A stretch of DNA of 64,000 bases, taken from positions 73,107 to 137,106 of the forward strand of contig JAJEHL010000011.1 in NCBI GenBank assembly GCA_022823725.1. The letters run 5' to 3'. The position numbers and the translations under genes were made by a program. Of this stretch, positions 3,925 to 50,867 are shown piece after piece. This DNA is from Candidatus Latescibacterota bacterium (GTDB lineage Bacteria > Latescibacterota > UBA2968). Below the pieces are notes generated by a model that saw nothing but the letters and a program-made list of their open reading frames with translations, made no database searches and was not told the origin of the DNA. How positions within the stretch are numbered: position 1 is the first letter of the stretch; every line of letters starts with the position of its first letter.

Positions 3925-4005
3925 CTTTTGATTCCTCCTGTTCAATAGGTGCGGGTTGAACTGCTACGCAGTTGTACACCGCTCGAAACCCGCACCTACA
4001 AACAT

Positions 4006-5013: not shown

Positions 5014-5040
5014 AATTTGCTCCTCAATAATGACCAATGA

Positions 5041-25809: not shown

Positions 25810-25909
25810 AAGTTCCAAAAACTAAAAATGTTTGCGTGACATTTGCACCATTTCGTTTTATTATTTTATTGCAACCAAATTATCCGCGACAACCTTCAAG
25901 GAGAATTTC

Positions 25910-28768
25910 ATGCGTGCATTATTTATAACTTTTTTTCTTCTGTGGAGCACTTGCTCGGTCATAGCTCAGGATCTCGGTAGCTTGACTGGAAAAGTGGAAG
26001 ATGAAACGGGAGAAGCATTATTCGCAGCCAATGTCATAGTCAAAGGACCGGCCATTGAAGGCACCCGGGGCGCAATCACCAACGACCGGGGAGACTATCG
26101 CATCGACCGCTTGCCGCCGGGCATTTACGAAATCACCATCAGTTATATCGGATATGAAACCATGGTTACAACTGGCGTAGAAATCCGCGCTGGCGAAAGT
26201 ATGACGCGAGATTTCAAGTTGACCGCTGTAGCCCTCATTGGTCAACAGGTCGTGGTATCGGCATCGCGCAAACAGGAAAAAGCCCTGGACGCGCCCGCTT
26301 CAATTGCAACGATCGAAGCAGCCGAAATCAGAGATCGAGGCGTCCTGTCGCCGACCGAGCATATCAAAGCCCTGCCCGGTGTAGATTTTTCCAAAACGGG
26401 CATCTCACAAAGCAACGTGGTCGTTCGCGGATTCAACAATGTATTTTCCGGCGCATTGCTCACACTCGTTGACAATCGCATAGCCCGCGTCCCTTCCCTG
26501 CGTTTCAATGCCTTTGACATGATCCCCGTTACCGGTGACGACATCGAGCGCATTGAAGTGGTATTAGGACCCGGATCCGCGCTTTACGGTCCCAACACCT
26601 CCAGTGGCGTGATGCACATTATCACCCGCTCGCCATTTGGATCAGAAGGCAATACAATTTCCATATCTGGCGGCCAGCGCAGTGTGCGGAGATTATCACT
26701 GCGGCACGCCAGCAGCCTCAACAACAAGATCGGGATCAAAGTCTCAGGTGTGCATAGTTCAGCCCATGACTGGGAGTACATCGATCCTCTGGAAGTAGAA
26801 GCGCGCGGTTTTAATCCACGCGATTACAACTCAAAAAAGACATTGGGAGAACTGAGACTCGATTTTCGACCAACAGATGACCTGACAATCATAGGCTCAA
26901 CGGGTTATACAAAAACAAGCGGTATTGAATTGACGGGTTTGGGCGCGGGCCAGGCAAAAGACTGGACCTATAATTTTTATCAAGGCCGCCTGCTCTATCG
27001 CGAGTGGTTTGCACAAATTTTCTACAACACGAGCAATGCAGGTCAAACGAGAATGATCGCACCCAACGACCCAATTGTAGATAATTCATATTTGATGGTC
27101 ATGCAATTGCAGCACAGTGCCAATTTGGGACAAAAACAACACTTTGCTTATGGTGCTGATGTACTGCGAACCCGACCCGTGACAGGGGGCACAATAAATG
27201 GCATACATGAAGACATTGATAACATCAATGAATACGGGATCTATTTGCAAAGTGAAACCAGCCTGAGCGATCAAATCGAGCTGGTATTGGCCGGGCGCAT
27301 CGACAAACACAGTCACATTGAAGACCCGTTTTTCTCACCCCGCGCAGCGCTGGTCATTAAACCCAGACCGCTCAACACCCTGCGATTGACGTATAACCGC
27401 GCATTTAGCACGCCTTCGACCACCAACTTATTTTTGGACCGGATCGGCCTCCCCGATCCCTTTGGGTTCGGGGCATTGCAATCGTCATTGGGATTTAATC
27501 CAGCAATTGACGTTCGCGCACAGGGCACTGCCGGTACCGGATTCACATTTCGCAGAGACGACAGTGGCCTACCCATGTATCGAACGCCCTTTGCGCCCAT
27601 AGCGGGCTTGTCAAAAGATCACTACTTCTCTCTGCACAGTCCCCAGGGTACCAATTTGATGTGGGGCGCTGCCAGAGAAATAATAATGGGTATCCTTTTG
27701 GCGGAACTGGAACCTCTCGCAACAGGACTTTTCGTCGATCGGCTTGGGCTACCACAAGAACAAGCGGCTGCGGTAGCCGCACAACTGGTCCGAGACTTTC
27801 CCGGGATCATTCCAGAACAACTGCAGGGCTTGCAAAATACGGCCGGCACACTGAATACAGCAACGGCGAGTTTTGATCCCGAGCCCAGCCTCGCCAATGC
27901 AGTGGCAGACATAAACAAAATCGAATCGACCATCTCAGAAACTTTTGAAGTAGGATACAAAGGCGTCATCAATAACAAACTCATTCTGGCAGCCGATGTC
28001 TATCTAAGCAGAAAAAGAAATTTCACCAGCCCGTTGCGGATTGTAACACCCAGTGTATTTCTCGACTCCGGTCCCTTGAACGAGGCTCTGTTAAACGGAA
28101 TTACCGAGAACTTGAAAGACCCTGCCAACGCGAGTCTCGCAATTGCCATCGGTCTTTTAGATCAGCTCAATCTGCCCGATTTGGGCCTGGTCGGCAACGG
28201 CAATGGCACAGGCATAGATGAATTGACGCAGGTATTTGTAGCCAACGCCGCGGGGATCCCCTTTGGCACCATATCTGCCGAACAGGCATCAGATCCCACC
28301 GCAGTGATGGTCGCATATCGCAATTTTGGTCGCATAACGCTCTACGGTGCCGACCTATCGTTTGCGTATTATCCAAACGAAATATGGACTTTTACCGGCA
28401 ATTACTCCTATGTCAGCGATGACTTTTTCCCCAACTTAGACAACATCGGCGACATTGCCCTCAATGCACCCAAGCACAAATTTAACATCGGAATTGATTG
28501 TCAACTGCCCAATACACCACTTACTATTAGTGGGAAATTGAGCTATCGCGGTGGTTTTCCCATGCGATCGGGTGTATATATCGGCGATGTAGATGCTTAT
28601 ACTGTTTTGGACCTGAATACCGCATATCAGTTGCCTATTTCAAATGATCGCTTCAAGGTCACCTGGAATGTGGAAGTCAGCAACGTGTTAAACCAGGAAT
28701 ATCGATCATTTGTCGGTGCGCCATTTATTGGACGCCTAATCTTAACTGGCCTGAATATTCGGTTCTAA
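25910..28768 (+). CDS. TonB-dependent receptor with a CarboxypepD_reg-like N-domain (paralog 1)
   Basis: The ATG at 25910 is preceded by an AAGGAG RBS. Signal peptide MRALFITFFLLWSTCSVIAQD. CarboxypepD_reg segment (LTGKVEDETGEALFAANVIVKG...GIYEITISYIGYE). Plug domain. C-terminal ...GLNIRF. Confidence 0.8.
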   Translation: MRALFITFFLLWSTCSVIAQDLGSLTGKVEDETGEALFAANVIVKGPAIEGTRGAITNDRGDYRIDRLPPGIYEITISYIGYETMVTTGVEIRAGESMTRDFKLTAVALIGQQVVVSASRKQEKALDAPASIATIEAAEIRDRGVLSPTEHIKALPGVDFSKTGISQSNVVVRGFNNVFSGALLTLVDNRIARVPSLRFNAFDMIPVTGDDIERIEVVLGPGSALYGPNTSSGVMHIITRSPFGSEGNTISISGGQRSVRRLSLRHASSLNNKIGIKVSGVHSSAHDWEYIDPLEVEARGFNPRDYNSKKTLGELRLDFRPTDDLTIIGSTGYTKTSGIELTGLGAGQAKDWTYNFYQGRLLYREWFAQIFYNTSNAGQTRMIAPNDPIVDNSYLMVMQLQHSANLGQKQHFAYGADVLRTRPVTGGTINGIHEDIDNINEYGIYLQSETSLSDQIELVLAGRIDKHSHIEDPFFSPRAALVIKPRPLNTLRLTYNRAFSTPSTTNLFLDRIGLPDPFGFGALQSSLGFNPAIDVRAQGTAGTGFTFRRDDSGLPMYRTPFAPIAGLSKDHYFSLHSPQGTNLMWGAAREIIMGILLAELEPLATGLFVDRLGLPQEQAAAVAAQLVRDFPGIIPEQLQGLQNTAGTLNTATASFDPEPSLANAVADINKIESTISETFEVGYKGVINNKLILAADVYLSRKRNFTSPLRIVTPSVFLDSGPLNEALLNGITENLKDPANASLAIAIGLLDQLNLPDLGLVGNGNGTGIDELTQVFVANAAGIPFGTISAEQASDPTAVMVAYRNFGRITLYGADLSFAYYPNEIWTFTGNYSYVSDDFFPNLDNIGDIALNAPKHKFNIGIDCQLPNTPLTISGKLSYRGGFPMRSGVYIGDVDAYTVLDLNTAYQLPISNDRFKVTWNVEVSNVLNQEYRSFVGAPFIGRLILTGLNIRF

Positions 28769-28823: not shown

Positions 28824-31685
28824 ATGCGTGTATTGTATATCCTTGCTTTCGTACTGTGGAATGCTTACTCGGTCGTAGCTCAGGACTTCGGCAGTTTGAC
28901 GGGCAAAGTGAAAACCGAAGACGGAGAAATCTTATTCGGTGCCAATATCATAGTCAAAGGACCTGCCATTGAAGGCACCCGGGGCGCAATCACCAACGAC
29001 CGGGGAGACTATCGCATCGACCGCTTGCCGCCGGGCATTTACGAAATCACCATCAGTTATATCGGATATGAATCCATCGTTACAACCGGCGTAGAAATCC
29101 GCGCGGGCGAAAGTATGACGCGAGATTTCAGACTGACCGCTGTAACCCTCATTGGTCAACAAGTCGTGGTATCGGCATCGCGCAAACAAGAAAAAGCCCT
29201 GGACGCGCCCGCCTCAATTGCAACAGTCGATGCGTCTGAAATCAGAAATCGAGAAGTCTTGACAATGAGCGAATACGTCAAGACTCTGCCCGGCGTTGAC
29301 TATGCTCAAACAGGCATATCGCAAGGCAGCATGGTAGTTCGCGGATTCAACAAAGTATTTTCTGGCGCACTGCTCACACTCGTTGACAACCGCATTGCCC
29401 GAATCCCGTCGCTACGCTTGAATGCCTATGATTTGATCCCCCTTACCAGTGACGACATTGAGCGCATTGAAGTGGTTTTAGGACCCGGATCTGCGCTTTA
29501 CGGTCCCAACAGCGCCAATGGCGTGATGCACATTATCACCCGCTCGCCATTTGGATCGGAAGGCAATACAATTTCCATATCTGGCGGCCAGCGCAGTGTG
29601 CGAAAATTATCACTGCGGCACGCCAGCAGCCTCAACAACAAGATCGGGATCAAAGTTTCGGGTGGATATGTTGCAACCCATGACTGGGAATATGTCGATT
29701 CCCTGGAAGTGGAAGCGCGCGGTTTTAATCCACGCGATTATAGCACAGAAAGGACAAGTGGGGAGTTCAGACTCGATTTTCGACCAACAGACAACCTGAC
29801 ATTGATAGGGTCGGTGGGCTATTCAAAAATGAGCGGCCTTCAACAGACGGATTTGGGCGCGGGCCAGGCGAAAGACTGGACCTATAATTTTTATCAAGGC
29901 CGCCTGCTGTATCGCGGATGGTTCGCACAGATCTTCTACAACACCAGTAATGCAGGCGACACGGAACTGATCACAGCCGGTGACCCAATTGTAGATAATT
30001 CACATTTGATGGTCTCGCAACTGCAACACAATGCCAGTTTGGGACAGAAACAACACTTTGCTTATGGTGCTGACGTACTGCTCACCCGGCCCAAAACACA
30101 GGGCACAGTACACGGCATGCATGAAGACAATGACGACATCGATGAATACGGGATTTACCTGCAAAGCGAAACCAATCTGAGCGATCAAATCGATCTGATA
30201 TTGGCCGGGCGTATCGACAAACACAGCCATATAGGAGATCCGTTTTTTTCTCCCCGCGCAGCACTGGTCATCAAACCCACGCCGGAAAACACCCTGCGAT
30301 TGACGTATAACCGCGCATTTAGCACACCCTTAACCCCCGACATGTTTGTAGATCGGGTCGGCGTTCCCGACATCTTTATGCTCGGCACAAGTTTCAGCCC
30401 GGTATTGGGATTTAGTCCAGCAATTGACCTTCGCGCCCAGGGCACCGCCGGTACCGGATTCACATTTCGCAGAGACGACAATGGGCTACCCATGTTTCGG
30501 ACGGCCTTTGCGCCCATAGCGGGCTTGTCAAAAGATCACTACTTCTCTCTGCACGATCCCCAGGTCACCAATTTGATGTGGGGTGCTGCCAGAGAGGCAA
30601 TACTGGACGGCTTTCTATCTGAACTGGAACCTCTCGCAACAGAGCTTATCGCAGGCGGGCTTGGACTACCACCAGATCAAGCGGTTGCACTGATCGAAAA
30701 ACTCGTCGAGATCTTTCCCGGAACTATCCCAGAACAACTGCCGGGCTTGCAAAATACGGCTGCGATACTGAATGCAGAAACGCAGGGTTTCGATCCCATA
30801 CCCGACCTCGCCAATGCAGTGACAGACATAGAAAAACTCGGACCCACCATAACAGAAACCTTTGAAGTGGGATACAAAGGCATCATCAACAACAAACTCA
30901 TCCTGGCAGCCGATGTCTATCAAACCAGAATCAAAAATTTCGTCAGCCCGTTGCGGATTGAAACGCCCAACGTATTTCTCGCCCCCGGTCCCTTAAGCGA
31001 AGCCCTGACAGACGCGCTTACCGAGAACCTGAAAGACCCTGCCAATGCAAGCCTCGCAATTGCCCTTGTTTTTTTAGATCAACTCAACGAGCCAGAGTTG
31101 GGATTGGTTGGCAATGGCAATGGAACAGGCGTGGATGAATTGACGGAGCTATTCGTAGCCAACGCCGCGCTGATCCCATTTGGCACCATAGTGCCCGAAC
31201 AGGCAGCAGACCCCAATGCCGTGATAGTCGCACCTCGCAATTTTGGCAATATAACGCTCTACGGTGCCGACCTGTCGTTTGCGTATTATCCAAACGAAAT
31301 ATGGGCTTTTACCGGCAATTACTCATACGTCAGCAAGGACTTTTTCCCCAATTTAGACAACATCGGCGACATTGCCCTCAATGCTCCCCGGCACAAATTT
31401 AACATCGGTATCGATTGCCAACTGCCCAATATACCGCTCACGATCCGAGGGAAATTGCGTTACCGCGATGGCTTTCCAATGCAATCGGGTATATATGTCG
31501 GCAATGTAGATGCTCATACTGTTCTGGATTTGAATATCACCTATCAATTGCCTCTTTCAAATGATCGCTTCAACACCACCCTGAGTTTGGATGCCAGCAA
31601 TTTGCTAAGCCAGGAATATCAATCACTTGTCGGTGCGCCCTGGATCGGACGCCTGATTACAAGCAGCTTGCACGTTCGATTCTAA
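28824..31685 (+). CDS. TonB-dependent receptor (paralog 2, tandem duplicate of 25910..28768)
   Basis: About 75% identical to paralog 1 over the full length. Has an AAGGAGGG RBS. C-terminal ...SLHVRF. Confidence 0.8.
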   Translation: MRVLYILAFVLWNAYSVVAQDFGSLTGKVKTEDGEILFGANIIVKGPAIEGTRGAITNDRGDYRIDRLPPGIYEITISYIGYESIVTTGVEIRAGESMTRDFRLTAVTLIGQQVVVSASRKQEKALDAPASIATVDASEIRNREVLTMSEYVKTLPGVDYAQTGISQGSMVVRGFNKVFSGALLTLVDNRIARIPSLRLNAYDLIPLTSDDIERIEVVLGPGSALYGPNSANGVMHIITRSPFGSEGNTISISGGQRSVRKLSLRHASSLNNKIGIKVSGGYVATHDWEYVDSLEVEARGFNPRDYSTERTSGEFRLDFRPTDNLTLIGSVGYSKMSGLQQTDLGAGQAKDWTYNFYQGRLLYRGWFAQIFYNTSNAGDTELITAGDPIVDNSHLMVSQLQHNASLGQKQHFAYGADVLLTRPKTQGTVHGMHEDNDDIDEYGIYLQSETNLSDQIDLILAGRIDKHSHIGDPFFSPRAALVIKPTPENTLRLTYNRAFSTPLTPDMFVDRVGVPDIFMLGTSFSPVLGFSPAIDLRAQGTAGTGFTFRRDDNGLPMFRTAFAPIAGLSKDHYFSLHDPQVTNLMWGAAREAILDGFLSELEPLATELIAGGLGLPPDQAVALIEKLVEIFPGTIPEQLPGLQNTAAILNAETQGFDPIPDLANAVTDIEKLGPTITETFEVGYKGIINNKLILAADVYQTRIKNFVSPLRIETPNVFLAPGPLSEALTDALTENLKDPANASLAIALVFLDQLNEPELGLVGNGNGTGVDELTELFVANAALIPFGTIVPEQAADPNAVIVAPRNFGNITLYGADLSFAYYPNEIWAFTGNYSYVSKDFFPNLDNIGDIALNAPRHKFNIGIDCQLPNIPLTIRGKLRYRDGFPMQSGIYVGNVDAHTVLDLNITYQLPLSNDRFNTTLSLDASNLLSQEYQSLVGAPWIGRLITSSLHVRF

Positions 31686-33041: not shown

Positions 33042-34727
33042 TCAAGCAGACACAACGCGAATATCAACCTCAAATGCACTGACGGGATAATTTATACCCC
33101 AGATTTCGAGAACGCTGGGATGCACTTCCCCAATAAGCCCGTAAACGCGCTCGCATATCCGGATCTCGCCACTGCGACCAGGCAAAAATGTGGGATGATC
33201 AATCGGCGCAATAGTATATTCAAAATTAAAATAATAGGATAACACCTCGAGAAAGCTCTGAATACCGGACAAATTGGCCTCGTCACTCGCTTCGAGCGCA
33301 CAGAGATGAATATCTGTGCGCGTACCGTAATCTTCCTCCGGCGCGAGAACCCCCACCTCACCCACTTCAAAAATCCGATGCGGGTACAACGCGCGGCGGC
33401 TTGTCGCTTCGGTCTTCAACAAACCGGGCAACAAAGACGCTCGAATCGCGCTGTAATTTTCGGACATGGGATTTGAAATCGAAATAATCTTTGCATCCGG
33501 ATTATTCATATCCACGGTCTGTTCTTTTTGAGAACAGAGAATCGGCAAAAAGACCTCTTGAAATCCGCTCCCAACCATGAGATTGCGAAATCGGTCTGCA
33601 AGATCCTCTTCTGGCGCGGCTTTGCCAACCGTAAAATCCCGGGGCATCTCGGGTTCAAAAGCCTCGTACCCCACACCGATCACAACATCTTCCACAACAT
33701 CGACAGGATGCAAAATATCGTCGCGATAAGGTGCTGGACGCACTTTGATACTCCGCTCTTGCATTTCAATATCCCGATAACCCATCGCGTTGAGCGCGGT
33801 CTGAATCTGCCCTATCGAAATATGTGACCCAACCACTTTGTAAATCTCATCCACATCGACCTGCAACGGCTCGGTCAGATCATAAGGACACGTCACAACC
33901 TGTCCCCTCGGCGTGTGAAATGGATACCGCACCGTCACGGGATAAATACGACCGCCCCGATCAGCCATATTGACCGCCATAATCGCCATAGACAAAAGAA
34001 TAGCGTCGAGTTCGGGACCCGTTGCTTCGCAAAACAAAAACGCATCCCCCACTTCAACGCGCCCCAGACTCTGGCTATTAATCACAGGAGGCATCGAAAG
34101 AACCTCGCCGCGCGAATCGCGGATCAGGGGAAACTTATCCTTCCCCTCGAGAAGATGTGCATACATCTTGCCCGTGGGATGATCGGACAAAATCTGTCGC
34201 AAAGACATCTCATCTTCAAACTCCAGGGGAACAAAAGCAGTTTCATCGGGATCAACCGCATCGTATCGCACCGGATACACAATATCGGACGCATCGTAAA
34301 TCCCAATCGCAACAACGCTGCGACCTCGCCCATATCCATCGGCGAGTTTTTCCTGCGCCTCGATAAGCGCGTCAAGTGCCGCCTCGTCAATCGCAATACC
34401 CTCACACGCAAAAGCGGCAATATAAGGACGGATATTTCGCAACCCGGGATCGACAATAACCTCCCTTTCCTGCGATACGCCAGACGCATCAAAAAAAGAA
34501 TAGTCTGGCTGAACATTCTCCCGATGGCTTTTGAGCAACCGCGCAAGCCCCTCTCCCGACCACAAATCGGGACGATTGGTATCCTTGAGCTGAATGCGAA
34601 GCGTATCCCCATCCTCGGCATCAATCTCAGCCTTCGCAGTTTCAAGAGCAGCACTCAGGCTCTCCGACGAATAAACCTGCCCCGCGAGACGTTCAAAATC
34701 GGGTTTATTAACTGTAATCGTTGGCAT
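33042..34727 (-). CDS. pheT: phenylalanine--tRNA ligase beta subunit, archaeal/eukaryotic type
   Basis: 561 aa. The N-terminus MPTITVNKPDFERLAGQ and overall length match archaeal-type PheT, about 550 aa versus about 800 aa for bacterial PheT. Lies immediately downstream of the archaeal-type pheS. Confidence 0.7.
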   Translation of the reverse strand: MPTITVNKPDFERLAGQVYSSESLSAALETAKAEIDAEDGDTLRIQLKDTNRPDLWSGEGLARLLKSHRENVQPDYSFFDASGVSQEREVIVDPGLRNIRPYIAAFACEGIAIDEAALDALIEAQEKLADGYGRGRSVVAIGIYDASDIVYPVRYDAVDPDETAFVPLEFEDEMSLRQILSDHPTGKMYAHLLEGKDKFPLIRDSRGEVLSMPPVINSQSLGRVEVGDAFLFCEATGPELDAILLSMAIMAVNMADRGGRIYPVTVRYPFHTPRGQVVTCPYDLTEPLQVDVDEIYKVVGSHISIGQIQTALNAMGYRDIEMQERSIKVRPAPYRDDILHPVDVVEDVVIGVGYEAFEPEMPRDFTVGKAAPEEDLADRFRNLMVGSGFQEVFLPILCSQKEQTVDMNNPDAKIISISNPMSENYSAIRASLLPGLLKTEATSRRALYPHRIFEVGEVGVLAPEEDYGTRTDIHLCALEASDEANLSGIQSFLEVLSYYFNFEYTIAPIDHPTFLPGRSGEIRICERVYGLIGEVHPSVLEIWGINYPVSAFEVDIRVVSA

Positions 34728-34746: not shown

Positions 34747-36285
34747 TTACCGCGTATTCCTGACCAGATCCAAATCCGTACTGAACAAATCGCGTATATC
34801 GTTAATACCCAGCGCGACCATCGCCATTCTATCAACCCCCAGACCCCAGGCAATAACCGGAACATCCACACCCAGAGGTCGTGTAAGCTCAGGCCGAAAA
34901 AGACCCGCACCACCAAGCTCAATCCATCCCAGAACGGGATGCTTCGCCTGAAGTTCGACCGAAGGCTCGGTAAAAGGAAAATAATCGGGCACATAGCGCA
35001 CATCTTCGGACTGCGCGATCTCAAGCGCGAACAGCTTGAGCAAACCGAGCAAACTGCGAAAATTTATTTCCTCACCCAAAACAATACCCTCAGCCTGAAA
35101 AAAATCTGCCGCATGCGTGGCATCGACATCATCCGGACGAAAACAACGCGCAAGCGCGAAATATTTACCCGGGATATTTGGCTTTGAAGCGAGCGTACGC
35201 CCCGAAAGCGCAGTCCCCTGACTCCGCAAAATAAGGCGGCGCGACTGCTCGGGATTAAATTCATATTGCCAACCGCGCGAACCAGTATCGCCCCCGTTCT
35301 GATGCGCCTCAGCCACCCTCGAAAAATAGGGTTCCTCTGCCTCTCGGGATTGCGTCGGCTCCGTAACATAATACGCATCGTGAATATTGCGCGCCGCGTG
35401 GAACTGCGGCATAAAAAGGGCATCCATATTCCAGAACTCGGTCTCCACCAGAGAACCTTTCATCTCTTCAAAACCAAGCACCATCAACCGGCGCCGCACA
35501 TTATCGAGATACGCCCGATAGGGATGGTGCTTTCCAATAAGCACGCGCGGCGGCTTAATCGACAAATCATATCGGCGAAAAGACGCGCCCTGCCATGTAC
35601 CCTTCTGAATCATTTCCGGCGTAAGCCGAGAAACTTCATCACCCGTAAGATTGGCTTTGACAACCTCCACAAGCACGCGCCGTCCTTCTTCAGTAAGACA
35701 ATAAACCCGCTCCGTGCGCTCGTCCAAACGAACAGGTGCCCTGCCCCCGCCGCGCTTGCGGGCATTGGCTTCGATATACTGGACAACATCACCGGGAAAA
35801 TTATCAATCTCAATTCCGGTATCGGAAAATTTGTCAAAAAATTCTGGCATAAGTCGATCAATAAAAAAAGAAGCCCGATCTGCATCGACAATAACAACAG
35901 CCCCCTTATCCAGATCGATAATCCCATCCTTTTTCAAACCGCCAAAAGCACTGCCCCAGGCACCTCTGTCAAAACGCTCGTCAGCCTGCAAATCTTGAAT
36001 CCCAACACGCTCTGCATTCGCCCGGGTCAAAAGTGCCGTCTCTGGCGTCGCGCCCTTTGCTACAAAATCCCGTCCCACTTCCGTAAGCGAAACCGTTGCA
36101 CGCGTATTTTCTCCAGTAACTTCGAGCAACTGCTTGGAAATCAGCCACTCGACCGCGCGCCGAACCTGTCCTTCGCCAATGCCCGCCCCCTTTTGAAGTT
36201 GTGCATCGGACTGCTCGGCACTGGCATTATTCTCATATACACGCAAAATGCGAATTTCGAGCGCATGTAAAGATGCGAGATCCAT
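34747..36285 (-). CDS. pheS: phenylalanine--tRNA ligase alpha subunit, archaeal/eukaryotic type
   Basis: Start at the ATG 36283-36285 (MDLASLHALEIRIL...) with a GGAG RBS; the track start at 36318 is a TTG inside the T-box terminator. About 510 aa with an extended N-terminal tRNA-binding region. Class II catalytic core ...FRPDDVDATHAADFFQAEG...GWIELGGAGLFRPE...AWGLGVDRMAM. Confidence 0.7.
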   Translation of the reverse strand: MDLASLHALEIRILRVYENNASAEQSDAQLQKGAGIGEGQVRRAVEWLISKQLLEVTGENTRATVSLTEVGRDFVAKGATPETALLTRANAERVGIQDLQADERFDRGAWGSAFGGLKKDGIIDLDKGAVVIVDADRASFFIDRLMPEFFDKFSDTGIEIDNFPGDVVQYIEANARKRGGGRAPVRLDERTERVYCLTEEGRRVLVEVVKANLTGDEVSRLTPEMIQKGTWQGASFRRYDLSIKPPRVLIGKHHPYRAYLDNVRRRLMVLGFEEMKGSLVETEFWNMDALFMPQFHAARNIHDAYYVTEPTQSREAEEPYFSRVAEAHQNGGDTGSRGWQYEFNPEQSRRLILRSQGTALSGRTLASKPNIPGKYFALARCFRPDDVDATHAADFFQAEGIVLGEEINFRSLLGLLKLFALEIAQSEDVRYVPDYFPFTEPSVELQAKHPVLGWIELGGAGLFRPELTRPLGVDVPVIAWGLGVDRMAMVALGINDIRDLFSTDLDLVRNTR

Positions 36286-36310
36286 CAAGAGAAACTCCAA
36301 TGTTAGTATT

Positions 36311-36586
36311 AAAAACAAAAAGCCCCTTCGTCATCATAGGGACGAAAGAGCTTCTCCGCGGTACCACCCTATTTGCGCTTAAAAGCACCACTCAGTAGAT
36401 GGCCGTCACCATCCTGTCCATTATCGGCGGACCCACCGGCTCGGCTTAATAGGAAACTGTCTTTCCATTCGGCTTTGCAGCTCGGGAGGGAACTTCGCCT
36501 GTGCATCCTGCAGATGTGCTTTCAGCCCAGGACACATCCTCTCTGTGCAGTTGGGAACAGGCTACTTTTCTCCGTCATTGCTTTAA
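36311..36586 (-). promoter_or_regulatory. T-box riboswitch leader (Phe specifier candidate) upstream of pheS
   Basis: The minus strand contains CAAAUAGGGUGGUACCGCGGAG, a 15/17 match to the T-box consensus AAUUAGGGUGGNACCGCG. It is followed by the terminator CUUUCGUCCCUAUGAUGACGAAGGGGCUUUUUGUUUUU. Upstream is an AGAGAG (GA/K-turn-like) motif and a GAAGUUCCC segment holding a UUC Phe codon. A promoter TTGACA-N17-TATGTT lies at 36593-36622. Confidence 0.6.
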
Positions 36587-36637
36587 GGGCAAAACATAGA
36601 AATTTGCGCTACAAGTGTCAAGCCGAAAGTAGCAAAT

Positions 36638-38872
36638 CTATCCGTTAATCGTTTTTCCAAAAACCTGGACGAACATAAGAAAATCGGTAAAGTCAACAGA
36701 ACCATTCCCATCGATATCGAATTGGGACTCGGACGATCCAAACGCCCCCACAAACAGGAGAAAATCGGCAAAGTCGATTGTGCCATCTCTGTTAAAATCC
36801 GATTTGGCTTCCACAGAAAGCGGCTGGACAACGCCAGAAATCGTCAGCATAAGCTTTGCGCGATCCGGATCATTGCTCAAAATATTGACACTCCCCGAAA
36901 ACTCGCCCTCCATGGGTCTGGGAAACGTAATCGTAATCGTCGCAGAACTATCCGGAGACAGTGTAAACATCACAGGATCAAACGTCAGACCCGGCACATC
37001 GCTCTCAATACCCGTAATCTCCAAATCCGCGGTACCCGTATTCGTAATCGTGAAAGTCTGTTGAGCCGTCTTTTCGGCATCAATACTCCCGAAATCAATT
37101 GCGGGTGCCCCCACAACCAGCACTGGCGCAGGCGCCGCCTGCACAATCACAGAAACAGACAACGTCTGTGTTCCACTATTCGTGTCATTACTCGAAATCG
37201 TAATATTCCCCGAAAAAGTACCTTCCACAGAACTCGGAAACGTCACCGTCACCGTCTGCGAATCGTCAGGTTCTAATGTGAACATCGTAGTATCAAACGT
37301 CAAACCCGACACATCACTCTCAATACCCGTAATCTCCAAATCCGCGGTACCCGTATTCCTGATCGTAATCGTCCGCTGAACCGTTTGAGCAAACGCAACA
37401 GTACCAAAATCAACTGCCGTTTGCTGAACAGCAATCACTGGCACAGGTCGCGGCTGCACGGTCACAGAAACAGACAACGTCTGTGTTCCACTATTCGTGT
37501 CATTACTCGAAATATTGATATTACCCGAAAACGTACCCTCCACAGAACTCGGAAACGTAATCGTCACCATCTGTGAACTGCCAGGTTCCACTGTGAACAT
37601 CACAGGATCAAACTTCAGACCTGCCACATCACCCTCACCTTTAATACCTGTAATCATCAAAGGTGCAGTACCAGTGTTCTCAATCGTAATTGTCTGTTCA
37701 CCTGTTTGACCTGCGACAATAGGATCGAAATTAACTGCCGTTTGCTGAACAGCAATCGCTGGCACAGGTCGCGGCTGCACGGTCACAGAAACAGACAACG
37801 TCTGTGTTCCACTATTCGTGTCATCACTCGAAATCGTGATATTACCCGAAAACGTACCCGCTGTCGAACTCGGAAACGTAATCGTAACTGTCTGCGAACC
37901 ATTGGGAGCCAACGTGAACGTAGAAGGCGTAAACATCAAACCCGGCACATCACTCTCAATACCCGTAATCTCCAAATCCGCGGTACCCGCATTCCTGATC
38001 GTAATCGTCTGCTGAACCGTTTGAGCAAACGCAACAGTACCAAAATTAACTGCTGTTTGCTGAACAGCGATCACCGGTACAGGGGGCGGCTGCACAATCA
38101 CAGAAACGGATAATATCTGGGTTGCACGATCCGGGTCATTACTCGAAATCGTGATATTACCCGAAAACGTACCCGCTGTCGAACTCGGAAACGTAATCGT
38201 CACCATCTGTGAACTGTTAGGTGCCAGTGTGAACATCGTAGTATCAAACTTCAACCCCGGCACATCGCTCTCGATACCCGTAATCTCAAGGGAACCTGTG
38301 CCTGTATTCGTAATCGTAATCGTCTGTTGACCTGTTTGACCTGCGACAATCGTGCCAAAATCAACTGCCGTTTGCTGCACAGCGATCGTCGGCACACTCG
38401 CGGGTATTTGCGCCAACAGTTCAGTAACCTTGTCTTTCACCTGAGTAACAGAACTTGAACTCAGACCGCCTATGACGGGTAATGCAGTCCCATTGGGACG
38501 AACCACAACGAAGTTCTCATACGAGGCCGGAGCAGAACTACTCGCATTTAGAAGCAGGGGAAAGGTGATGCCTCCGTTCCTGCGAAAACCCTCAACCTGA
38601 GACTGACTACCACCCCAGGTATCGAGACCGAGCATCTCTACATTGGGGTTTGCTTTATAATCTTGCCATAATCCTTCGAGTCGCGGACCCGCCGCTTGAC
38701 AGGTCGGTCAGCCATGCCCAAAGACCGCAAGTATGAGTACTTTGCCACGATAGTCAGAGGCACTATATGTATTGCCATCGAGGCCCCGTAGAGAAAAATT
38801 AACCGTTTGTGCAGAGGCAGCCCCAACGAGCAAAAGCAGAATCATCGGGATGGACAATAGGTATTGGCGCAT
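36638..38872 (-). CDS. selenoprotein candidate: secreted TlpA-like redoxin (U-P-T-C motif) fused to five Ig-like (ASH/choice-of-anchor-D-like) repeats and a C-terminal dockerin
   Basis: The ATG at 38870-38872 (AAGGA RBS) opens MRQYLLSIPMILLLLVGAASAQTVNFSLRGLDGNTYSASDYRGKVLILAVFGHG. An in-frame TGA at 38708-38710 follows, then PTCQAAGPRLEGLWQDYKANPNVEMLGLDTWGG..., continuing the ORF-track entry 36638..38635 in the same frame. The UGA falls exactly at the first Cys of the redoxin F-x-x-x-W-C-x-x-C motif. The body is five repeats of about 105 aa (IAVQQTAV(D/N)FG...LEITGIESDV.GL.F...VTITFPSS..GTFSGNITISSND). The C-terminus has two dockerin-type calcium-binding segments (DFNRDGTIDFADF and DIDGNGSVDFTDF). 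Confidence 0.6.
38680..38700 (-). promoter_or_regulatory. bacterial SECIS-like hairpin 8 nt downstream of the in-frame UGA
   Basis: mRNA ...UGA CCGACCUG UCAAGCGG CGGGU CCGCGAC...: the stem GUC(AA)GCGG / CCGCGAC has a G/U-containing apical loop CGGGU. Placement is compatible with bSECIS. Confidence 0.4.
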
Positions 38873-38902
38873 GGTGTTTATCCTTATATATTGGTGGAAA
38901 TA

Positions 38903-39107
38903 ATGACAACCAAAACCTTCTGGATCGCGGCTAACACCCTGCCGCGATGACAGCATAAAGGCTAAGACAAAAGCAAAACCTCTGGATCGCGGCTCAACAT
39001 CATAGCCTGCCCCCGTATGCTTTAAGCAGGGGCCGCGATGACGGCATAAAGGCTAAAACAAAAGCAAAACCCCTGGATTGCGGCTTTAAGCAGGCCGCAA
39101 TGACGGC
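38903..39107. repeat. REP-like hairpin array (3 units)
   Basis: Three units of ATGACRRCMTAAAGGCTAAGACAAAAGCAAAACCYCTGGATYGCGGCT-loop-GCCGCRATGACGG. Loops differ in length (9 to about 30 nt); one loop embeds a CCCCGTA/TTAAGCAGGGG module. Confidence 0.7.
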
Positions 39108-45205: not shown

Positions 45206-46063
45206 TCAAGCTGCGCGATCAATTGCCTGGCTCAATGCCCGTTGTGTAAACACGCGCGCCAAATGGGCGCGGTAATCGCCAGAAGCGTGGTGATCTTCCT
45301 GAAATTCTTCCACACCATCAGCCGCATGGGCCGCCGCATCGGCAACAGCGTCAATACCCTGTCCCACAAGCGCGTCTTCGACCGCATGTGCGCGGTACGC
45401 CGCAGGCGCAACACCGGTAACACCCACAGCCACAGAAGCGCAATTGCCCGCATCATCCAAAGTGACCTGAGCCGCAACGCCTGCAAGGGCAAAACCGGAT
45501 GCAGATTGTCGCATCTTGACATAAGCACCACCCGAATTCTCGGGCGGCGTGGCAATGCGAATACCAGTAAGAACCTCGCCGGGTTGCAAATCCGTAATAA
45601 AAAGATCCACAAAAAAATCTGACGCAGCAACCGCGCGTTCACCATCTGGCCCGGCAATATCGAATTGTGCATCGAGGGCGAGCATCGTCGCAGGCCAATC
45701 CGCAGCCGGGTCGGCATGGGCAATACTCCCGCCCACAGTGCCTCGATTCCGCACCTGCGCATCGCCAATCTCCGCTGCGGTCTCGGGCAAAAGTGAACAT
45801 TTTGAAGGCAATAAGCGATGGCTTTCCACAGCATAATGCGTGGCCAGCGCACCAATGGTAATGGTCTCATTGCCCGCCGTCACTCTCTTTAAGCCAGCAA
45901 CACCGCCCAGGTCAATAACGACCGAAGGCGCGGCAAGACGCAATTTCATAGACGGAATCAGACTGTGACCGCCCGCCAGTACTTTGGCATCGTCGCCGAA
46001 CTCTTGCACCAGCCGCATCGCGCTTCTCAAAGTTTTGGGTGCGTGGTAATCAAAGGGGGTCAT
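45206..46063 (-). CDS. coxM: FAD-binding subunit of an xanthine dehydrogenase-family Mo hydroxylase (CoxM-like)
   Basis: ...AGGHSLIPSMKLRLAAP... FAD-binding PCMH signature. Confidence 0.8.
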   Translation of the reverse strand: MTPFDYHAPKTLRSAMRLVQEFGDDAKVLAGGHSLIPSMKLRLAAPSVVIDLGGVAGLKRVTAGNETITIGALATHYAVESHRLLPSKCSLLPETAAEIGDAQVRNRGTVGGSIAHADPAADWPATMLALDAQFDIAGPDGERAVAASDFFVDLFITDLQPGEVLTGIRIATPPENSGGAYVKMRQSASGFALAGVAAQVTLDDAGNCASVAVGVTGVAPAAYRAHAVEDALVGQGIDAVADAAAHAADGVEEFQEDHHASGDYRAHLARVFTQRALSQAIDRAA

Positions 46064-46066
46064 TGT

Positions 46067-48400
46067 TCAGGTCTCCTGCATGAGTTTCCAGAGTTTTTCA
46101 GGACGCAAAGGCAAATCGATATGCCGCACGCCAAAAGGTTTCAGCGCGTCAATCACCGCATTGGCTATCGCGGGCGTAGAACCAATCGTACCCGCTTCGC
46201 CCACACCTTTGACACCCATCGGATTAACGGGCGAAGGCGTAACCGTATTTGCCAGTTCAAAGCGCGGAAAATTGTGCGCTTTGGGCAAGGCATAATCCAT
46301 AAATGAACCAGTGATCATCTGCCCGCTTTCATCGTAAATAGCTTCCTCGTAAAGGGCCTGTCCCACACCCTGCGCAATACCGCCGTGTACCTGGCCCTCA
46401 ACAATCAACGGATTGATAATATTCCCACAATCGTCAACGGCAATATAGCGTTGTATCTCGACCTCGCCCGTATCGGCATCGACCTCGACCACGGCGATAT
46501 GCGTGCCAAAGGGATAGGTAAAATTGGGCGGTTCAAAAAAGTGCGATTCGGCCAAACCGGGTTCTGTGCCCTCGGGGAGTTCCACCCCCACATGAGCCAC
46601 CATCGCAATCTCGCCCAAAGTAAGACCCGACTCGGGCGCACCCCGAACGCAGTATTTGTCGTCTTCAATCACAATATCCTGCGGATTGCTCTCCAGCAGA
46701 TGCGCGGCAATATTGATCACTTTATCTTTCACCTTGCCCATCGCATGCACCATCGCCGTACCACCCACAGCCGTCGCGCGGCTACCAAATGTACCAATAC
46801 CGTATTGCACCGTATCAGTATCGCCGTGGATAATGCGAATATCGTCAATATCAACCCCCAAACCATCGGCAATAAGCTGGGCAAATGTGGTCTCCTGCCC
46901 CTGTCCGTGAGGCGATACACCCGTGAGCACGGTTACCTTACCCGTGGGATCTACGCGCACAGTACTGCTTTCCCATCCGCCAGCGGGCATCGCAGCAGAA
47001 GGACCCATCCCACAAATCTCCACATAAGTGGAAAATCCAATACCGAGATATCGGCCCTCTTCTCGCAATTCGGCCTGCTGCTCGCGCAAAGCGTCGTAAT
47101 CGGCAATCTTGAGTGCCTTGTCGAGCGCCGCCGTATAGTCGCCACTATCATAAGCCACAGCAGTCCCCGTTTCATAGGGAAAAGCATCTTTGCCGATAAA
47201 GTTTTTGCGCCGCACCTCCAGAGGATCCAGATCCAGATCGTGCGCCACCACATCGATCATGCGTTCGATGAGATACGTGGCCTCTGGACGCCCCGCACCT
47301 CGATAGGCATCCGTCGCCATCTTATTCGTAAAAGCCGCTTTGAGATTCATCTGCACATTTTTAAACGTGTAAGAACCGCACAACATCAATCCCGTAAGCG
47401 TGGGAATGGCCGGTGTGAGCAACTGATAATAAGCTCCCACATCAGCCGAAACCGTGTATCTGAGACCCAGGATCGTACCGTCGTCTTTCACCGCGAGTTC
47501 GACATCCCCTGTCTGATCGCGTCCGTGAATCGTGTGCAAAAAGTTCTCACGCCGCCCTTCAATCCACTTCACGGGTTGCCCCAGATATTTCGCCATATGC
47601 CCCAGCAGAGCTTCCTCGGCATACACATTGAGCTTGCAACCAAAACCACCGCCCACTTCGGGCGCAATAACGCGCACATGATTTTCGGCCATACTGAGCA
47701 TAACGGATATTTGCGTGCGCAAAAGATGGGGAATTTGCGTGGAAGACCACAAGTTGAGCTGATCTTTGCCGGGCAAATATTGGGCAACCACACCGCGCGT
47801 CTCCATCGGATTGGGAACCAGACGCTGATGGTCAATTCGCTGGCTAACGACATGATCGGCCTCGGCAAAAGCCGCATCCACATCGCCCCCGGCAATACTC
47901 CAGGTAAAAGCCATATTATCGTCCCAATCTTCGTGAATAATAGGCGCGCCATCGGCAAAAGCCGCCTCAGCCGAATTGATGGCATCGAGAGGTTCGTAAT
48001 CGACCTCAATCAAATCCAGTGCATCCTGAGCAATATACGCATCGGTCGCTGCAACAGCGGCGACGGGTTCACCGACAAAACGCACCTTTCCCGTAGCGAG
48101 CACGGGATGGTGGGGCACCTTAATACCCGGAAATCCCTCCGGATCTGTAGCCGCACAGGGAATCCCACCAATGACGTCTTTAACATCATCGCCAGTGACA
48201 ACAGACTTGACGCCGGATAAATTTTGAGCCGCATCGGTATTAATACCATTGATGCGCGCATGGGCATAAGGGCTTCGCAAAATCGCGACATGTAACAAAT
48301 TGGGCAACTTAATGTCATCGACATAATGTGCAAGGCCCTGAATCAGTCGAGGGTCTTCTCGGCGCTTAATACGGGCGCCAACAGATTTGCTAACAGGCAT
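46067..48400 (-). CDS. coxL: molybdopterin-binding large subunit, form II CODH-like (AYRGAGR motif)
   Basis: 777 aa in the aldehyde oxidase / xanthine dehydrogenase a/b-hammerhead and MoCo-binding family. The active-site loop AYRGAGR at 47288-47308 (GCC TAT CGA GGT GCG GGG CGT on the minus strand) is the form II motif rather than form I AYxCSFR. Confidence 0.85.
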   Translation of the reverse strand: MPVSKSVGARIKRREDPRLIQGLAHYVDDIKLPNLLHVAILRSPYAHARINGINTDAAQNLSGVKSVVTGDDVKDVIGGIPCAATDPEGFPGIKVPHHPVLATGKVRFVGEPVAAVAATDAYIAQDALDLIEVDYEPLDAINSAEAAFADGAPIIHEDWDDNMAFTWSIAGGDVDAAFAEADHVVSQRIDHQRLVPNPMETRGVVAQYLPGKDQLNLWSSTQIPHLLRTQISVMLSMAENHVRVIAPEVGGGFGCKLNVYAEEALLGHMAKYLGQPVKWIEGRRENFLHTIHGRDQTGDVELAVKDDGTILGLRYTVSADVGAYYQLLTPAIPTLTGLMLCGSYTFKNVQMNLKAAFTNKMATDAYRGAGRPEATYLIERMIDVVAHDLDLDPLEVRRKNFIGKDAFPYETGTAVAYDSGDYTAALDKALKIADYDALREQQAELREEGRYLGIGFSTYVEICGMGPSAAMPAGGWESSTVRVDPTGKVTVLTGVSPHGQGQETTFAQLIADGLGVDIDDIRIIHGDTDTVQYGIGTFGSRATAVGGTAMVHAMGKVKDKVINIAAHLLESNPQDIVIEDDKYCVRGAPESGLTLGEIAMVAHVGVELPEGTEPGLAESHFFEPPNFTYPFGTHIAVVEVDADTGEVEIQRYIAVDDCGNIINPLIVEGQVHGGIAQGVGQALYEEAIYDESGQMITGSFMDYALPKAHNFPRFELANTVTPSPVNPMGVKGVGEAGTIGSTPAIANAVIDALKPFGVRHIDLPLRPEKLWKLMQET

Positions 48401-48410
48401 GGGGCGCCTC

Positions 48411-48875
48411 CTATCTGGTCATTTTTTTCGATGCGTATTGAACCGCATCGACAATGTGTTGATACCCTGTACAGCGGCACAAATTGCCTTCTATACCGCG
48501 TCGAATATCGGCTTCATTGGGTTTGGGATTGCGTTCTAAAAGCTGGTGCGCGGCAATAATCATGCCCGGGGTGCAAAAACCGCACTGCAATCCATGGCAT
48601 TCCCAGAAGCCCTCCTGAATAGGGTGCAATTCACCATTTTGGGCAAGGCCCTCAATGGTAGTAATTTCAGCACCATCGGCTTGCACTGCCAAAACCGTAC
48701 ACGATTTGACAGCATCTCCATTGAGCATCACACTGCACGCGCCACAAAGGCTGGTCTCGCAGCCCACATGCGTGCCAGTAAGCCCGACGACCTCGCGCAA
48801 AAAATGCACGAGCAACATCCGAGGTTCCACGTCGTAGCTTTGATGCTCCCCGTTCACAGTGACTTCAATTTTCAC
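48411..48875 (-). CDS. coxS: (2Fe-2S)-binding small subunit (CoxS-like)
   Basis: The GTG at 48873-48875 is preceded by an AAGGAGG RBS ([10 protein letters not shown]...). The cysteine pattern C-x4-C-x2-C...C for two [2Fe-2S] clusters is present ([12 protein letters not shown]..., CGFCTPG). Confidence 0.8.
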
Positions 48876-49016
48876 GCAAGCCTCCTTTGAAAAGGGGGGA
48901 AGAAAAAATAGACTTACACTCTGTCGCAAGATATAGCGCATGAGAACGCCATGCAAATAGTTTCTCTAAGGCACAGGTGAACCATCTTGGGATACGACCC
49001 ATTTTACACCGCGCCA

Positions 49017-50246: not shown

Positions 50247-50867
50247 ATGAAAACACTTTACTACGTCGCCGACCCCATGTGTTCCTGGTGCTGGGGATTT
50301 CAGCCAGTGCTCGAAAAAGTAAAAGAAGCTATACCCGAAGAGTTATCACCCGTATATATCATGGGAGGATTGGCACGCGACACCGATGACCTCATGCCCG
50401 ACGCGATGCAGGCGCATATCCAGCGCGCCTGGCGCGAAGTAGCAGCCATAACAGGCGCGAGTTTCAACTGGGACTTTTGGGAAAAATGCAAACCGAGGCG
50501 ATGCACCTATCCATCTTGCAGGTCATTTTATGCGGCTCAAAATCAAGGGGCTGGAACAGCGATGTACGAAGCGATTCAACGCGCCTATTATCGGGAAGCA
50601 CGCAATCCATCGGATGCAGACGTCCTCGTCGCATTGGCGGGTGAAATCGGATTAGACACAGCGCGTTTTGCATGCGATCTATCCTCACCCGAAATCGAAC
50701 AAAAGATGCAAGATGGATTTAACATCAGGCGATCAATGAATGCCAACCAGTTTCCAAGCCTCGTCATAAGAAACAACGCGTCCGTCACCTTCATCACCCG
50801 GGGCTATAACGACGCGGAAAACGTGTTGACGCGCTTGCGAGCTATAATCTCTGGATTGCGGCTTTAA
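50247..50867 (+). CDS. DsbA-family thioredoxin-fold protein (2-hydroxychromene-2-carboxylate isomerase/DsbA-like)
   Basis: MKTLYYVADPMCSWCWGF with a CSWC CxxC motif. The last ~8 codons (...IISGLRL*) are encoded by a REP-like unit. Confidence 0.7.
   Translation: MKTLYYVADPMCSWCWGFQPVLEKVKEAIPEELSPVYIMGGLARDTDDLMPDAMQAHIQRAWREVAAITGASFNWDFWEKCKPRRCTYPSCRSFYAAQNQGAGTAMYEAIQRAYYREARNPSDADVLVALAGEIGLDTARFACDLSSPEIEQKMQDGFNIRRSMNANQFPSLVIRNNASVTFITRGYNDAENVLTRLRAIISGLRL

Follow-up and report, generated by a model that had tools for sequence, protein, structure and literature searches.

Organization of the gene

The stretch of DNA considered here (the window) comprises 64,000 nucleotides (nt) of contig JAJEHL010000011.1, positions 73,107 to 137,106 of the forward strand, from the Candidatus Latescibacterota bacterium assembly GCA_022823725.1. 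Its minus strand harbors one gene that very probably encodes an exported selenoprotein, which is built from a signal peptide, a ResA/TlpA-like redoxin with the active site U-P-T-C (U, selenocysteine), five immunoglobulin (Ig)-like spacers, and a type I dockerin. Translation yields a single frame that opens with the ATG at 38872 and closes with the TAG at 36638, and the sole interruption is a TGA at 38710..38708 (...GKVLILAVFGHG*PTCQAAGPRLEGLWQDY...). A program that lists open reading frames (ORFs) divides this frame into 38708..38956 and 36638..38635, the second piece starting at the first methionine past the TGA (Met80). No stop or shift of frame occurs in the 24 codons that separate the TGA from Met80. 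An earlier interpretation made from the letters of the window (the sequence-only reading) had already joined the two pieces across the TGA and proposed the order signal peptide, redoxin, Ig repeats, dockerin; the translation bears out the joined frame, and the architecture is correct. The features of the gene are the following, all on the minus strand.

36638..38872 (-), complete selenoprotein gene (predicted), 744 codons plus TAG with the in-frame UGA as codon 55; organization shared with orthologs
38881..38885 (-), putative Shine-Dalgarno-like AAGGA, 8 nt before the ATG, read from the sequence
38810..38872 (-), putative Sec-type signal peptide, MRQYLLSIPMILLLLVGAASA/Q; n-region basic, core hydrophobic, cleavage motif A-x-A
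38402..38806 (-), thioredoxin-fold redoxin, ResA/TlpA-like (amino acids (aa) 23-157), active site U55-P-T-C58, from Pfam, PDB profile, model, and fold search
38708..38710 (-), in-frame UGA, predicted selenocysteine codon 55, aligned with the invariant first Cys of CPxC
38678..38700 (-), candidate hairpin resembling a selenocysteine insertion sequence (SECIS), positions +11 to +33, from folding and ortholog comparison
36821..38392 (-), five tandem Ig-like repeats of 102-107 aa, choice-of-anchor D / DUF1573 / HYDIN-ASH type, PapD-like β-sandwich
38392-38078, 38077-37763, 37762-37442, 37441-37127, and 37126-36821 (-), boundaries of the five repeats
36641..36820 (-), type I dockerin at the C-terminus, its two Ca-binding loop-helix segments being DFNRDGTIDFADFLLF and DIDGNGSVDFTDFLMF

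The AAGGA lies inside a block, CAATATAT(A/G)AGGA(T/G)AAAT, that is near-invariant in an upstream alignment of eight orthologs. Because this block precedes the ATG at 38872, that codon is supported as the true start. The N-terminus has the character of a Sec-type signal peptide, which is predicted to be cleaved between MRQYLLSIPMILLLLVGAASA and Q and is kept in all orthologs. Synteny is likewise kept across the orthologous contigs, in the order PhyH, the gene itself, T-box-pheS-pheT, GFO_IDH, and TonB receptors. In public records the gene appears in two parts. On ENA ERZ23491381 scaffold_19 (328 kb), from a sponge metagenome, the same gene is annotated as a 54-aa ORF and a 665-aa ORF, and the NCBI label of the downstream piece is “choice-of-anchor D domain-containing protein.”

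Of the 53 ORFs picked in the window, 17 end in TGA. A reassignment of TGA (genetic code 4 or 25) was rejected because the codon is an ordinary stop for these 17 ORFs. A scan of the window for further TGA-interrupted genes gave only ordinary gene junctions and noncoding frames. Since no second selenoprotein candidate was found there, the window holds no corroboration of a selenocysteine trait from a further gene.

The UGA codon in orthologs and cysteine homologs

The codon was read directly from the DNA of homologs, which were retrieved with the redoxin domain and are of two types. The first consists of close relatives (70-85% identity) that all start at the Met80 equivalent, together with a 93-aa fragment that ends ...IIGYG at the equivalent of codon 54. 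The second comprises full-length redoxins of ~190 aa that are more distantly related. When the sequences are aligned, the UGA coincides with the first, invariant Cys of C-P-x-C, as the sequence-only reading had expected for a redoxin CxxC. The codon is TGT or TGC in 58 distinct homologous redoxins from Balneolaceae, Flavobacteriaceae, and other, mostly Bacteroidota loci. A UGA aligned to Cys at a redox site is the standard selenoprotein signature (PMC1794560, PMC9312934). In Balneolaceae and related Bacteroidota, the Cys homologs occur as tandem gene pairs ~510-530 nt apart, several of them with lipobox signal peptides (tandem pairs in L013, L015, L016, L018-L021, L025-L027, L029-L033, L037, L038, L045, and L049-L054).

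Every Latescibacterota ortholog examined has TGA at codon 55 (12/12 distinct sequences). These orthologs (L001, L002-L004, L005, L006-L010, and L060-L063, with L006-L010 being GTDB species representatives) belong to sponge-associated Latescibacterota metagenome-assembled genomes (MAGs), some of which are labeled Gemmatimonadetes. The TGA is seen in the ENA assemblies ERZ21830300, ERZ21862620, ERZ23491743, and ERZ23491381, in the NCBI assemblies GCA_009841665.1 and GCA_021295695.1, in the Logan assembly of SRR9841446, and in chromosome-level MAGs with OZ and OX accessions; the samples and assemblers are independent. Ircinia sponge data sets underlie ERZ23491743 and GCA_009841665.1. Several of L006-L010 are complete chromosomes, and OZ242311.1, OX638329.1, OZ253501.1, and CBDDPH010000002.1 are among the complete Latescibacterota sequences that bear an ortholog. 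The orthologs carry the motif U-P-S/T-C and have neither a frameshift nor an extra stop on either side of the TGA. Among them, the ratio of nonsynonymous to synonymous differences (pN/pS) is 0.28 over codons 1-54, 0.60 over codons 56-79, and 0.41 over codons 80-105.

The same site is occupied by UGA in a second lineage. L039, from an unrelated uncultured bacterium, encodes a redoxin (AhpC-TSA, 43 bits) with a FlgD-Ig tail and the motif U-P-F-C, and carries TGA at the equivalent codon, where its close relative L056 carries TGC. By its sequence, the L039 lineage shows the UGA independently. L039 (3055, TGA) and L056 (1755, TGC) constitute a second, independent selenocysteine/Cys pair in the redoxin family, in GC-rich uncultured bacteria.

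The hairpin downstream of the UGA

The RNA after the UGA was compared in an ungapped codon register, as MAFFT placed a spurious gap in L039, and position 1 is the U of UGA. The stem-loop picked out by the sequence-only reading, GUC(AA)GCGG[CGGGU]CCGCGAC, is present in the window at positions 11-31. It begins 8 nt past the UGA, forms all seven pairs, and has a folding energy of -6.9 kcal/mol. L007 and L008 share this version (codons CAA GCG, -6.9 kcal/mol). The commoner version (codons AGA GCC) is GAG(C)CGCG[GGUC]CGCG(A)CUC at positions 14-33, for which -9.5 kcal/mol was computed in L001 and L002. L005, L006, L009, and L060-L063 are identical there, and L060-L062 likewise fold into this hairpin. 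In L010 (AAT GCG) just the 4-bp GCGG/CCGC upper stem forms, and the lower pairs are not all made. G22-G23-U24 lie within the apical loop in all three versions. L039, of unrelated sequence, has a hairpin in the same place, CGCCGAC[GGUCC]GUCGGUG, at -10.5 kcal/mol.

The only synonymous change in the stem is GCG/GCC at codon 60, which covaries 4:4 with codon 59 (CAA or AAT versus AGA). The change at codons 59/60 switches the register of the stem, and CAA-GCG and AGA-GCC each give a full seven-pair hairpin. The Gly-Pro codons that form the loop are GGU CCG in 9/9 selenocysteine forms versus 5/50 Cys forms. Synonymous divergence is lowest over codons 61-87, at 0.03-0.08 versus ~0.2 elsewhere. The loop codons and the low synonymous divergence provide evidence for a constraint at the RNA level downstream of the UGA.

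The bacterial SECIS (bSECIS) consensus is characterized by a loop of 3-9 nt, an upper stem of at least 4 bp, a G in the first two loop positions, and a spacing of 16-37 nt (PMC13188914); the energy threshold of the consensus model is -7.5 kcal/mol. The hairpins here have the loop GGUC or CGGGU, an upper stem of 4 bp with a 3-bp extension, and a spacing of 16-18 nt. Most orthologs (-9.5 kcal/mol) and L039 (-10.5 kcal/mol) agree with the consensus in all four respects.

The minimal SECIS of Escherichia coli fdhF is a 17-nt upper stem-loop 11 nt from the UGA with a bulged U17 and with G23/U24 in the loop (PMC8659212). The short, GC-rich upper stem-loop of the present gene starts 10-13 nt past the UGA, depending on the version. 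In most orthologs the GGUC loop occupies positions 22-25, which places G23 and U24 exactly as in fdhF, and the commoner version leaves position 17 unpaired. The candidate element differs in that a C within a 1x1 internal loop takes the place of the bulged U at position 17, and in that the window copy is weaker and lies in a shifted register (loop CGGGU). Since loop (GGUC) and spacing resemble those of E. coli, the native SECIS might be functional when the gene is expressed in that species.

The redoxin domain

The redoxin is matched by the Pfam families AhpC-TSA (PF00578, 42.9 bits, cut-off 26, aa 23-119) and Redoxin (29.4 bits, cut-off 26.6). When the PDB is searched with a redoxin-family profile, 2ls5 (3e-30), 3kcm (4e-29), and Bacillus subtilis ResA (1e-25) are retrieved, and the pneumococcal Etrx proteins are also matched. 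In a model of the Cys homolog P0016 (predicted local distance difference test score (pLDDT) 70, moderate), C81-P-T-C84 sits at the N-terminus of helix 82-99, and a fold search with this model again retrieves ResA-like proteins. The PDB profile, the P0016 model, and the fold search agree on a thioredoxin fold in which helix α-1 has the redox dyad at its N-terminus. The NCBIfam equivalogs ResA, StoA, and TlpA score 39.1, 22.4, and 17.6 bits against cut-offs of 170, 210, and 230, and none is reached. Judged by these scores, the redoxin is related to ResA/StoA/TlpA yet is the ortholog of no named enzyme. It bears the subfamily signature LGLDxW...GITFPLLLN, which is common to Bacteroidota envelope redoxins.

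The Ig-like repeats and the dockerin

Each of PF22544 (1.4e-68) and PF07610 (2.4e-58) matches five stretches of the repeat region, NCBIfam choice_anch_D (NF012200) scores 67.8 bits against a cut-off of 45, and Tandem Repeats Finder detects 4.6 copies of a 315-nt unit (78% matches), all in keeping with the five ~105-aa repeats of the sequence-only reading. That reading had also taken the repeats to be nearly identical in DNA and recently amplified, which does not hold. The five units are 66-86% identical in DNA and 52-81% in protein (pairwise), and the last repeat of the window has a clear ortholog in L008; a recent burst was rejected on these grounds. The number of repeats differs among orthologs, with one in L001, L002, and L005, two in L006, L007, and L009, four in L010, and five in the window and L008.

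The dockerin constitutes the last 60 residues. Its assignment, likewise anticipated, is borne out by Pfam Dockerin_1 (PF00404, 33.3 bits, cut-off 22.9, match at 36674-36802) and NCBIfam dockerin_GC (NF041540, 29.8 bits, cut-off 29), and both segments, as read from the sequence, fit D-x-[DN]-x-[DN]-G-x-[IV]-D-F-x-D-F. An AlphaFold2 model of the last repeat and the dockerin (pLDDT 84.5) shows a β-sandwich followed by two helices, and its best PDB match is the HYDIN PapD-like domain 2e6j (E = 7e-10).

Two side observations concern this part of the protein. The repeat and dockerin region (36641..38392) has a sub-threshold match to the NCBIfam OS_HP2 (seleno)protein family (NF041425, 24-31 bits, cut-off 100), which reflects a shared DUF1573-type fold only, the repeats being without UGA. 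In L063 (1..304; GCA_021295695.1, JAGWBW010000074.1), another ORF, the product of which ends in an Ig domain and a dockerin, lies directly upstream of the selenoprotein gene, which suggests a tandem paralog in that MAG.

Weighing of the alternatives

Several findings speak against a selenoprotein. In the window, L007, and L008, the hairpin has the bSECIS geometry while its energy of -6.9 kcal/mol falls short of -7.5. The 86 nt around the UGA in the window fold no better than shuffles (z = 0.11), and a competing hairpin (GACCUGUC/GGCGGGUC, loop AAGC) has the lowest predicted energy. For these two reasons the single-sequence fold was set aside for comparative analysis; taken alone, the window hairpin would be no more than chance, and the comparative data carry the case. 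Within these data, the orthologs are closely related (pS ~0.2) and classical compensatory covariation is nearly absent, the conserved Gly-Pro of the protein dictates part of the loop sequence, and the Cys form L056 has a very stable hairpin after its TGC (-18.3 kcal/mol). Since a Cys form has a strong hairpin too, such a structure is not diagnostic in GC-rich genes; that of L056 could be a fossil SECIS or a mere effect of GC content. A search of Rfam with 181 nt around the UGA (E up to 10) gave two noise matches and no SECIS family, a null result that is uninformative because Rfam has no fitting general bacterial SECIS model. As had been stated from the sequence, selA, selB, selD, and tRNA-Sec are absent from the 64-kb window (Pfam matches of 49 ORFs; no tRNA), and the same Pfam matches include neither a cohesin family nor a CcdA/DsbD-type electron donor. 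A protein search with E. coli SelA found Enterobacteriaceae throughout the best 120 of 8000 matches and is silent on Latescibacterota. An enzyme tethered past the cytoplasmic membrane would also require a route for its re-reduction.

A lineage devoid of selenocysteine machinery might read the UGA with a near-cognate or suppressor tRNA that inefficiently inserts Trp, Cys, or Arg. This would be in line with the absence of that machinery from the window and with the marginal window hairpin, which is no better than shuffled sequence. The site, however, is the catalytic Cys of CxxC in all Cys homologs, where only selenocysteine or Cys preserves function, and the correspondence of UGA and Cys at a redox site is the selenoprotein signature cited above. 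Such a read-through also leaves unexplained the invariant GGU CCG loop codons, the G23/U24 spacing, and the recurrence of a UGA with a hairpin in L039, and it is considered improbable. A real stop would make the locus either a decaying pseudogene or two genes, a 54-aa peptide and a 665-aa Ig/dockerin protein that starts from Met80. Gene callers and NCBI annotate the locus in this way, and Met80 is conserved in the orthologs. Yet the 24 codons from the TGA to Met80 are in frame and stop-free with a pN/pS of 0.60 in 12 distinct orthologs, and they encode the rest of the active site (PTC) together with helix α-1. A product initiated at Met80 would lack the signal peptide and half of its fold. Met80 is replaced by Leu, Ile, or Ala in the Cys homologs and is therefore an internal residue, and the conserved Shine-Dalgarno-like block precedes Met1, not Met80. 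A pseudogene, in turn, would not hold the same single lesion through species-level divergence. A genuine stop is highly improbable. An error of sequencing or assembly at a true TGT or TGC (Cys), which the sequence-only reading had named as a way for its proposal to fail, has nothing in its favor beyond the a priori possibility; it is refuted for practical purposes by the identical TGA in more than 12 assemblies made independently, in different projects and from different samples, and its likelihood is negligible. The UGA/Cys match, the conservation, the intact frame, and the use of TGA as an ordinary stop together lead to the exclusion of sequencing error, pseudogene, and two genes. The selenoprotein proposal has withstood the tests that were run on it, namely the Cys match, the 12 orthologs, the ordinary-stop TGA, the hairpin, and L039.

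A further alternative concerns the function only. The selenocysteine domain could be a thiol peroxidase that acts on H2O2 or organic peroxides at the cell surface instead of a disulfide reductase or isomerase. The best Pfam match is AhpC/TSA, peroxiredoxins with selenocysteine exist (PMC13188914), and an antioxidant role at the surface would presumably suit a sponge symbiont. Against this, U-P-T-C stands at the CxxC position of ResA/TlpA and is not the peroxiredoxin motif PxxxTxxU, and thiol-disulfide oxidoreductases (ResA, DsbE-like, and Etrx-type) are structurally nearest, with peroxiredoxins scoring far lower. From motif and fold, the peroxidase role appears weaker than that of a ResA-type oxidoreductase and is rather unlikely.

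Proposed mechanism and location

For an exported selenoprotein with an oxidoreductase head, the following course can be proposed. Translation would begin at 38872 and reach the UGA at codon 55, where SelB·GTP·Sec-tRNA(Sec) would be recruited by the hairpin 11-14 nt downstream, which shows G23/U24 in its apical loop. Selenocysteine would then be inserted at codon 55 in a SelB-dependent manner in place of termination, and the product would be exported via its signal peptide. Sec55 is likely the exposed nucleophilic N-terminal residue of the CxxC dyad at the start of helix α-1. It may attack a substrate disulfide or an oxidized sulfur center, after which Cys58 would resolve the selenenylsulfide. 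The most likely role is that of an extracytoplasmic thiol/selenol-disulfide oxidoreductase; the direction of the redox reaction and the nature of its substrate are proposed here by inference. The Ig repeats would form a stalk of species-specific length that keeps the catalytic head off the anchoring point, and the dockerin would act as the anchor by binding a putative cohesin-bearing partner encoded elsewhere.

The Bacteroidota Cys homologs carry either lipobox signal peptides (P0016, P0018) or a C-terminal sorting domain of the type IX secretion system (T9SS; P0021, PF18962). As these relatives use a lipobox or a T9SS C-terminal domain, and L039 has its FlgD-Ig tail, a location of the whole family in the cell envelope or at the surface is supported. 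The window also contains a PorV-like T9SS component, which is of relevance because redoxin relatives in other phyla bear T9SS-type C-terminal domains. It adjoins two ORFs of 914 aa and 447 aa without a Pfam match at E <= 1e-5.

4006..5037, 5041..7785, and 2602..3945 (-), PorV-like T9SS component and adjoining ORFs

A more far-reaching and tentative idea, for which the odds are rather against, is that sponge-associated Latescibacterota display a selenoenzyme outside the cytoplasm on a cohesin-dockerin scaffold, tethered at the interface of symbiont and host by a stalk that is tuned through one to five repeats. If true, selenocysteine would be documented for the first time in Latescibacterota, no dockerin-borne selenoprotein would have been known before, and the selenium redox chemistry would be disulfide reduction or defense against oxidants.

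Relationship to known systems

The “Prx-like thiol:disulfide oxidoreductase” (PF00578, UxxC/UxxU) is an accepted predicted selenoprotein family (PMC9312934) with Geobacter WP_010940744.1 as a reference (PMC9312934, PMC13188914). The present gene combines PF00578 at 42.9 bits (cut-off 26) with U-P-T-C, as the catalog defines the family, and by the catalog's domain and motif alone it belongs there. The AhpC/TSA-redoxin domain, selenocysteine (predicted here) as the first residue of UxxC, and the existence of homologs with Cys at that site are shared, and the gene has a candidate bSECIS-type hairpin past the UGA, as the family does. The differences are that the catalogued entries, which are described by domain and motif only, show no fusion to Ig repeats or a dockerin, and that the redoxin here represents a distinct subfamily common to Bacteroidota envelope redoxins.

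ResA/TlpA/CcmG (DsbE) proteins (PDB 1st9, 1jfu, 3gl3, 3kcm, and 2ls5) share the thioredoxin fold, the dyad at the N-terminus of helix α-1, and export, which is predicted for the present protein; profile-to-PDB E-values range from 1e-25 to 3e-30. The protein of the window differs in the substitution of the first Cys with selenocysteine and of the Trp before CxxC with Gly (G-U-P-T-C), and in its C-terminal extension of Ig repeats and dockerin. Etrx1 and Etrx2, surface-exposed thioredoxin lipoproteins of Streptococcus pneumoniae (PDB 2yp6, 4hqs, and 4hqz), resemble it in sequence and fold as envelope-tethered ResA-like redoxins. They are, however, Cys enzymes of a Gram-positive organism with a lipid anchor instead of a dockerin, and no MsrAB/CcdA partner is seen in the window. 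Etrx1 and Etrx2 hand electrons to an extracellular methionine-sulfoxide reductase, and their system may serve as a useful functional analogy. Noncellulosomal dockerin proteins share the type I dockerin with its duplicated Ca-binding segments, and choice-of-anchor D (DUF1573/HYDIN-ASH) proteins share the PapD-like β-sandwich repeats; the difference compared to both is that the modules here carry a predicted selenoenzyme head.

In the searchable literature, no link of Latescibacter* with selenocysteine, selenoproteins, selenophosphate, or dockerins was found, nor was a selenoprotein family with an Ig-repeat and dockerin fusion or a Latescibacterota host. Apparently new are the phylum of the host, the subfamily of the redoxin, and its fusion to Ig repeats of the choice-of-anchor-D type and to a dockerin. 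If confirmed, the gene extends the use of selenocysteine to the uncultured phylum Latescibacterota and adds a secreted, dockerin-tethered selenoenzyme to a family whose known members are mostly small redoxins that stand alone. The main practical value lies in the correction of a systematic misannotation. Every public copy is recorded as a 54-aa ORF and a truncated “choice-of-anchor D domain-containing protein,” which makes the redox function invisible to metabolic reconstructions of sponge symbionts. In addition, Latescibacterota versus Bacteroidota and L039 versus L056 offer clean selenocysteine/Cys pairs for the study of selenocysteine selection at envelope redox sites.

Other features of the window

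The intergenic region between the PhyH gene and the selenoprotein gene (38913..39085) contains a 54-nt direct repeat in two copies (93% identical) and a third, partial copy of 20 nt. Related blocks (...GTCATCGCGGC...GCCGCGATCCAGAGGTTTTGG...) occur upstream of the orthologs in variable copy number, and gene callers turn them into spurious N-terminal extensions (P0017, P0023). A small repeat element and a regulatory site are two possible identities of the blocks.

The selenoprotein gene is directly followed by a full-length T-box leader (RF00230, 108 bits, gathering score 93) at 36335..36587 (-). It stands upstream of pheS (34747..36318, -), which encodes a long, 523-aa α subunit of phenylalanyl-tRNA synthetase, and of pheT (33042..34727, -), the product of which is a 561-aa β subunit of the B5/tRNA_synthFbeta type. 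The specifier region, GAAG-UUC-C, is consistent with Phe. As T-boxes are mainly a feature of Firmicutes, the occurrence of one in Latescibacterota merits attention.

Two adjacent paralogous TonB-dependent receptors with CarboxypepD_reg N-terminal domains (25832..28768, +, and 28824..31685, +) are syntenic with the selenoprotein locus in all orthologous contigs, and a third receptor is found at 7859..11137 (-). A three-gene molybdopterin dehydrogenase cluster of the CoxSML/xanthine dehydrogenase type (Fer2_2, MoCoBD, FAD_binding_5) occupies 45206..48956 (-), and near it a DsbA-like thioredoxin in the Cys form is encoded at 50247..50867 (+).

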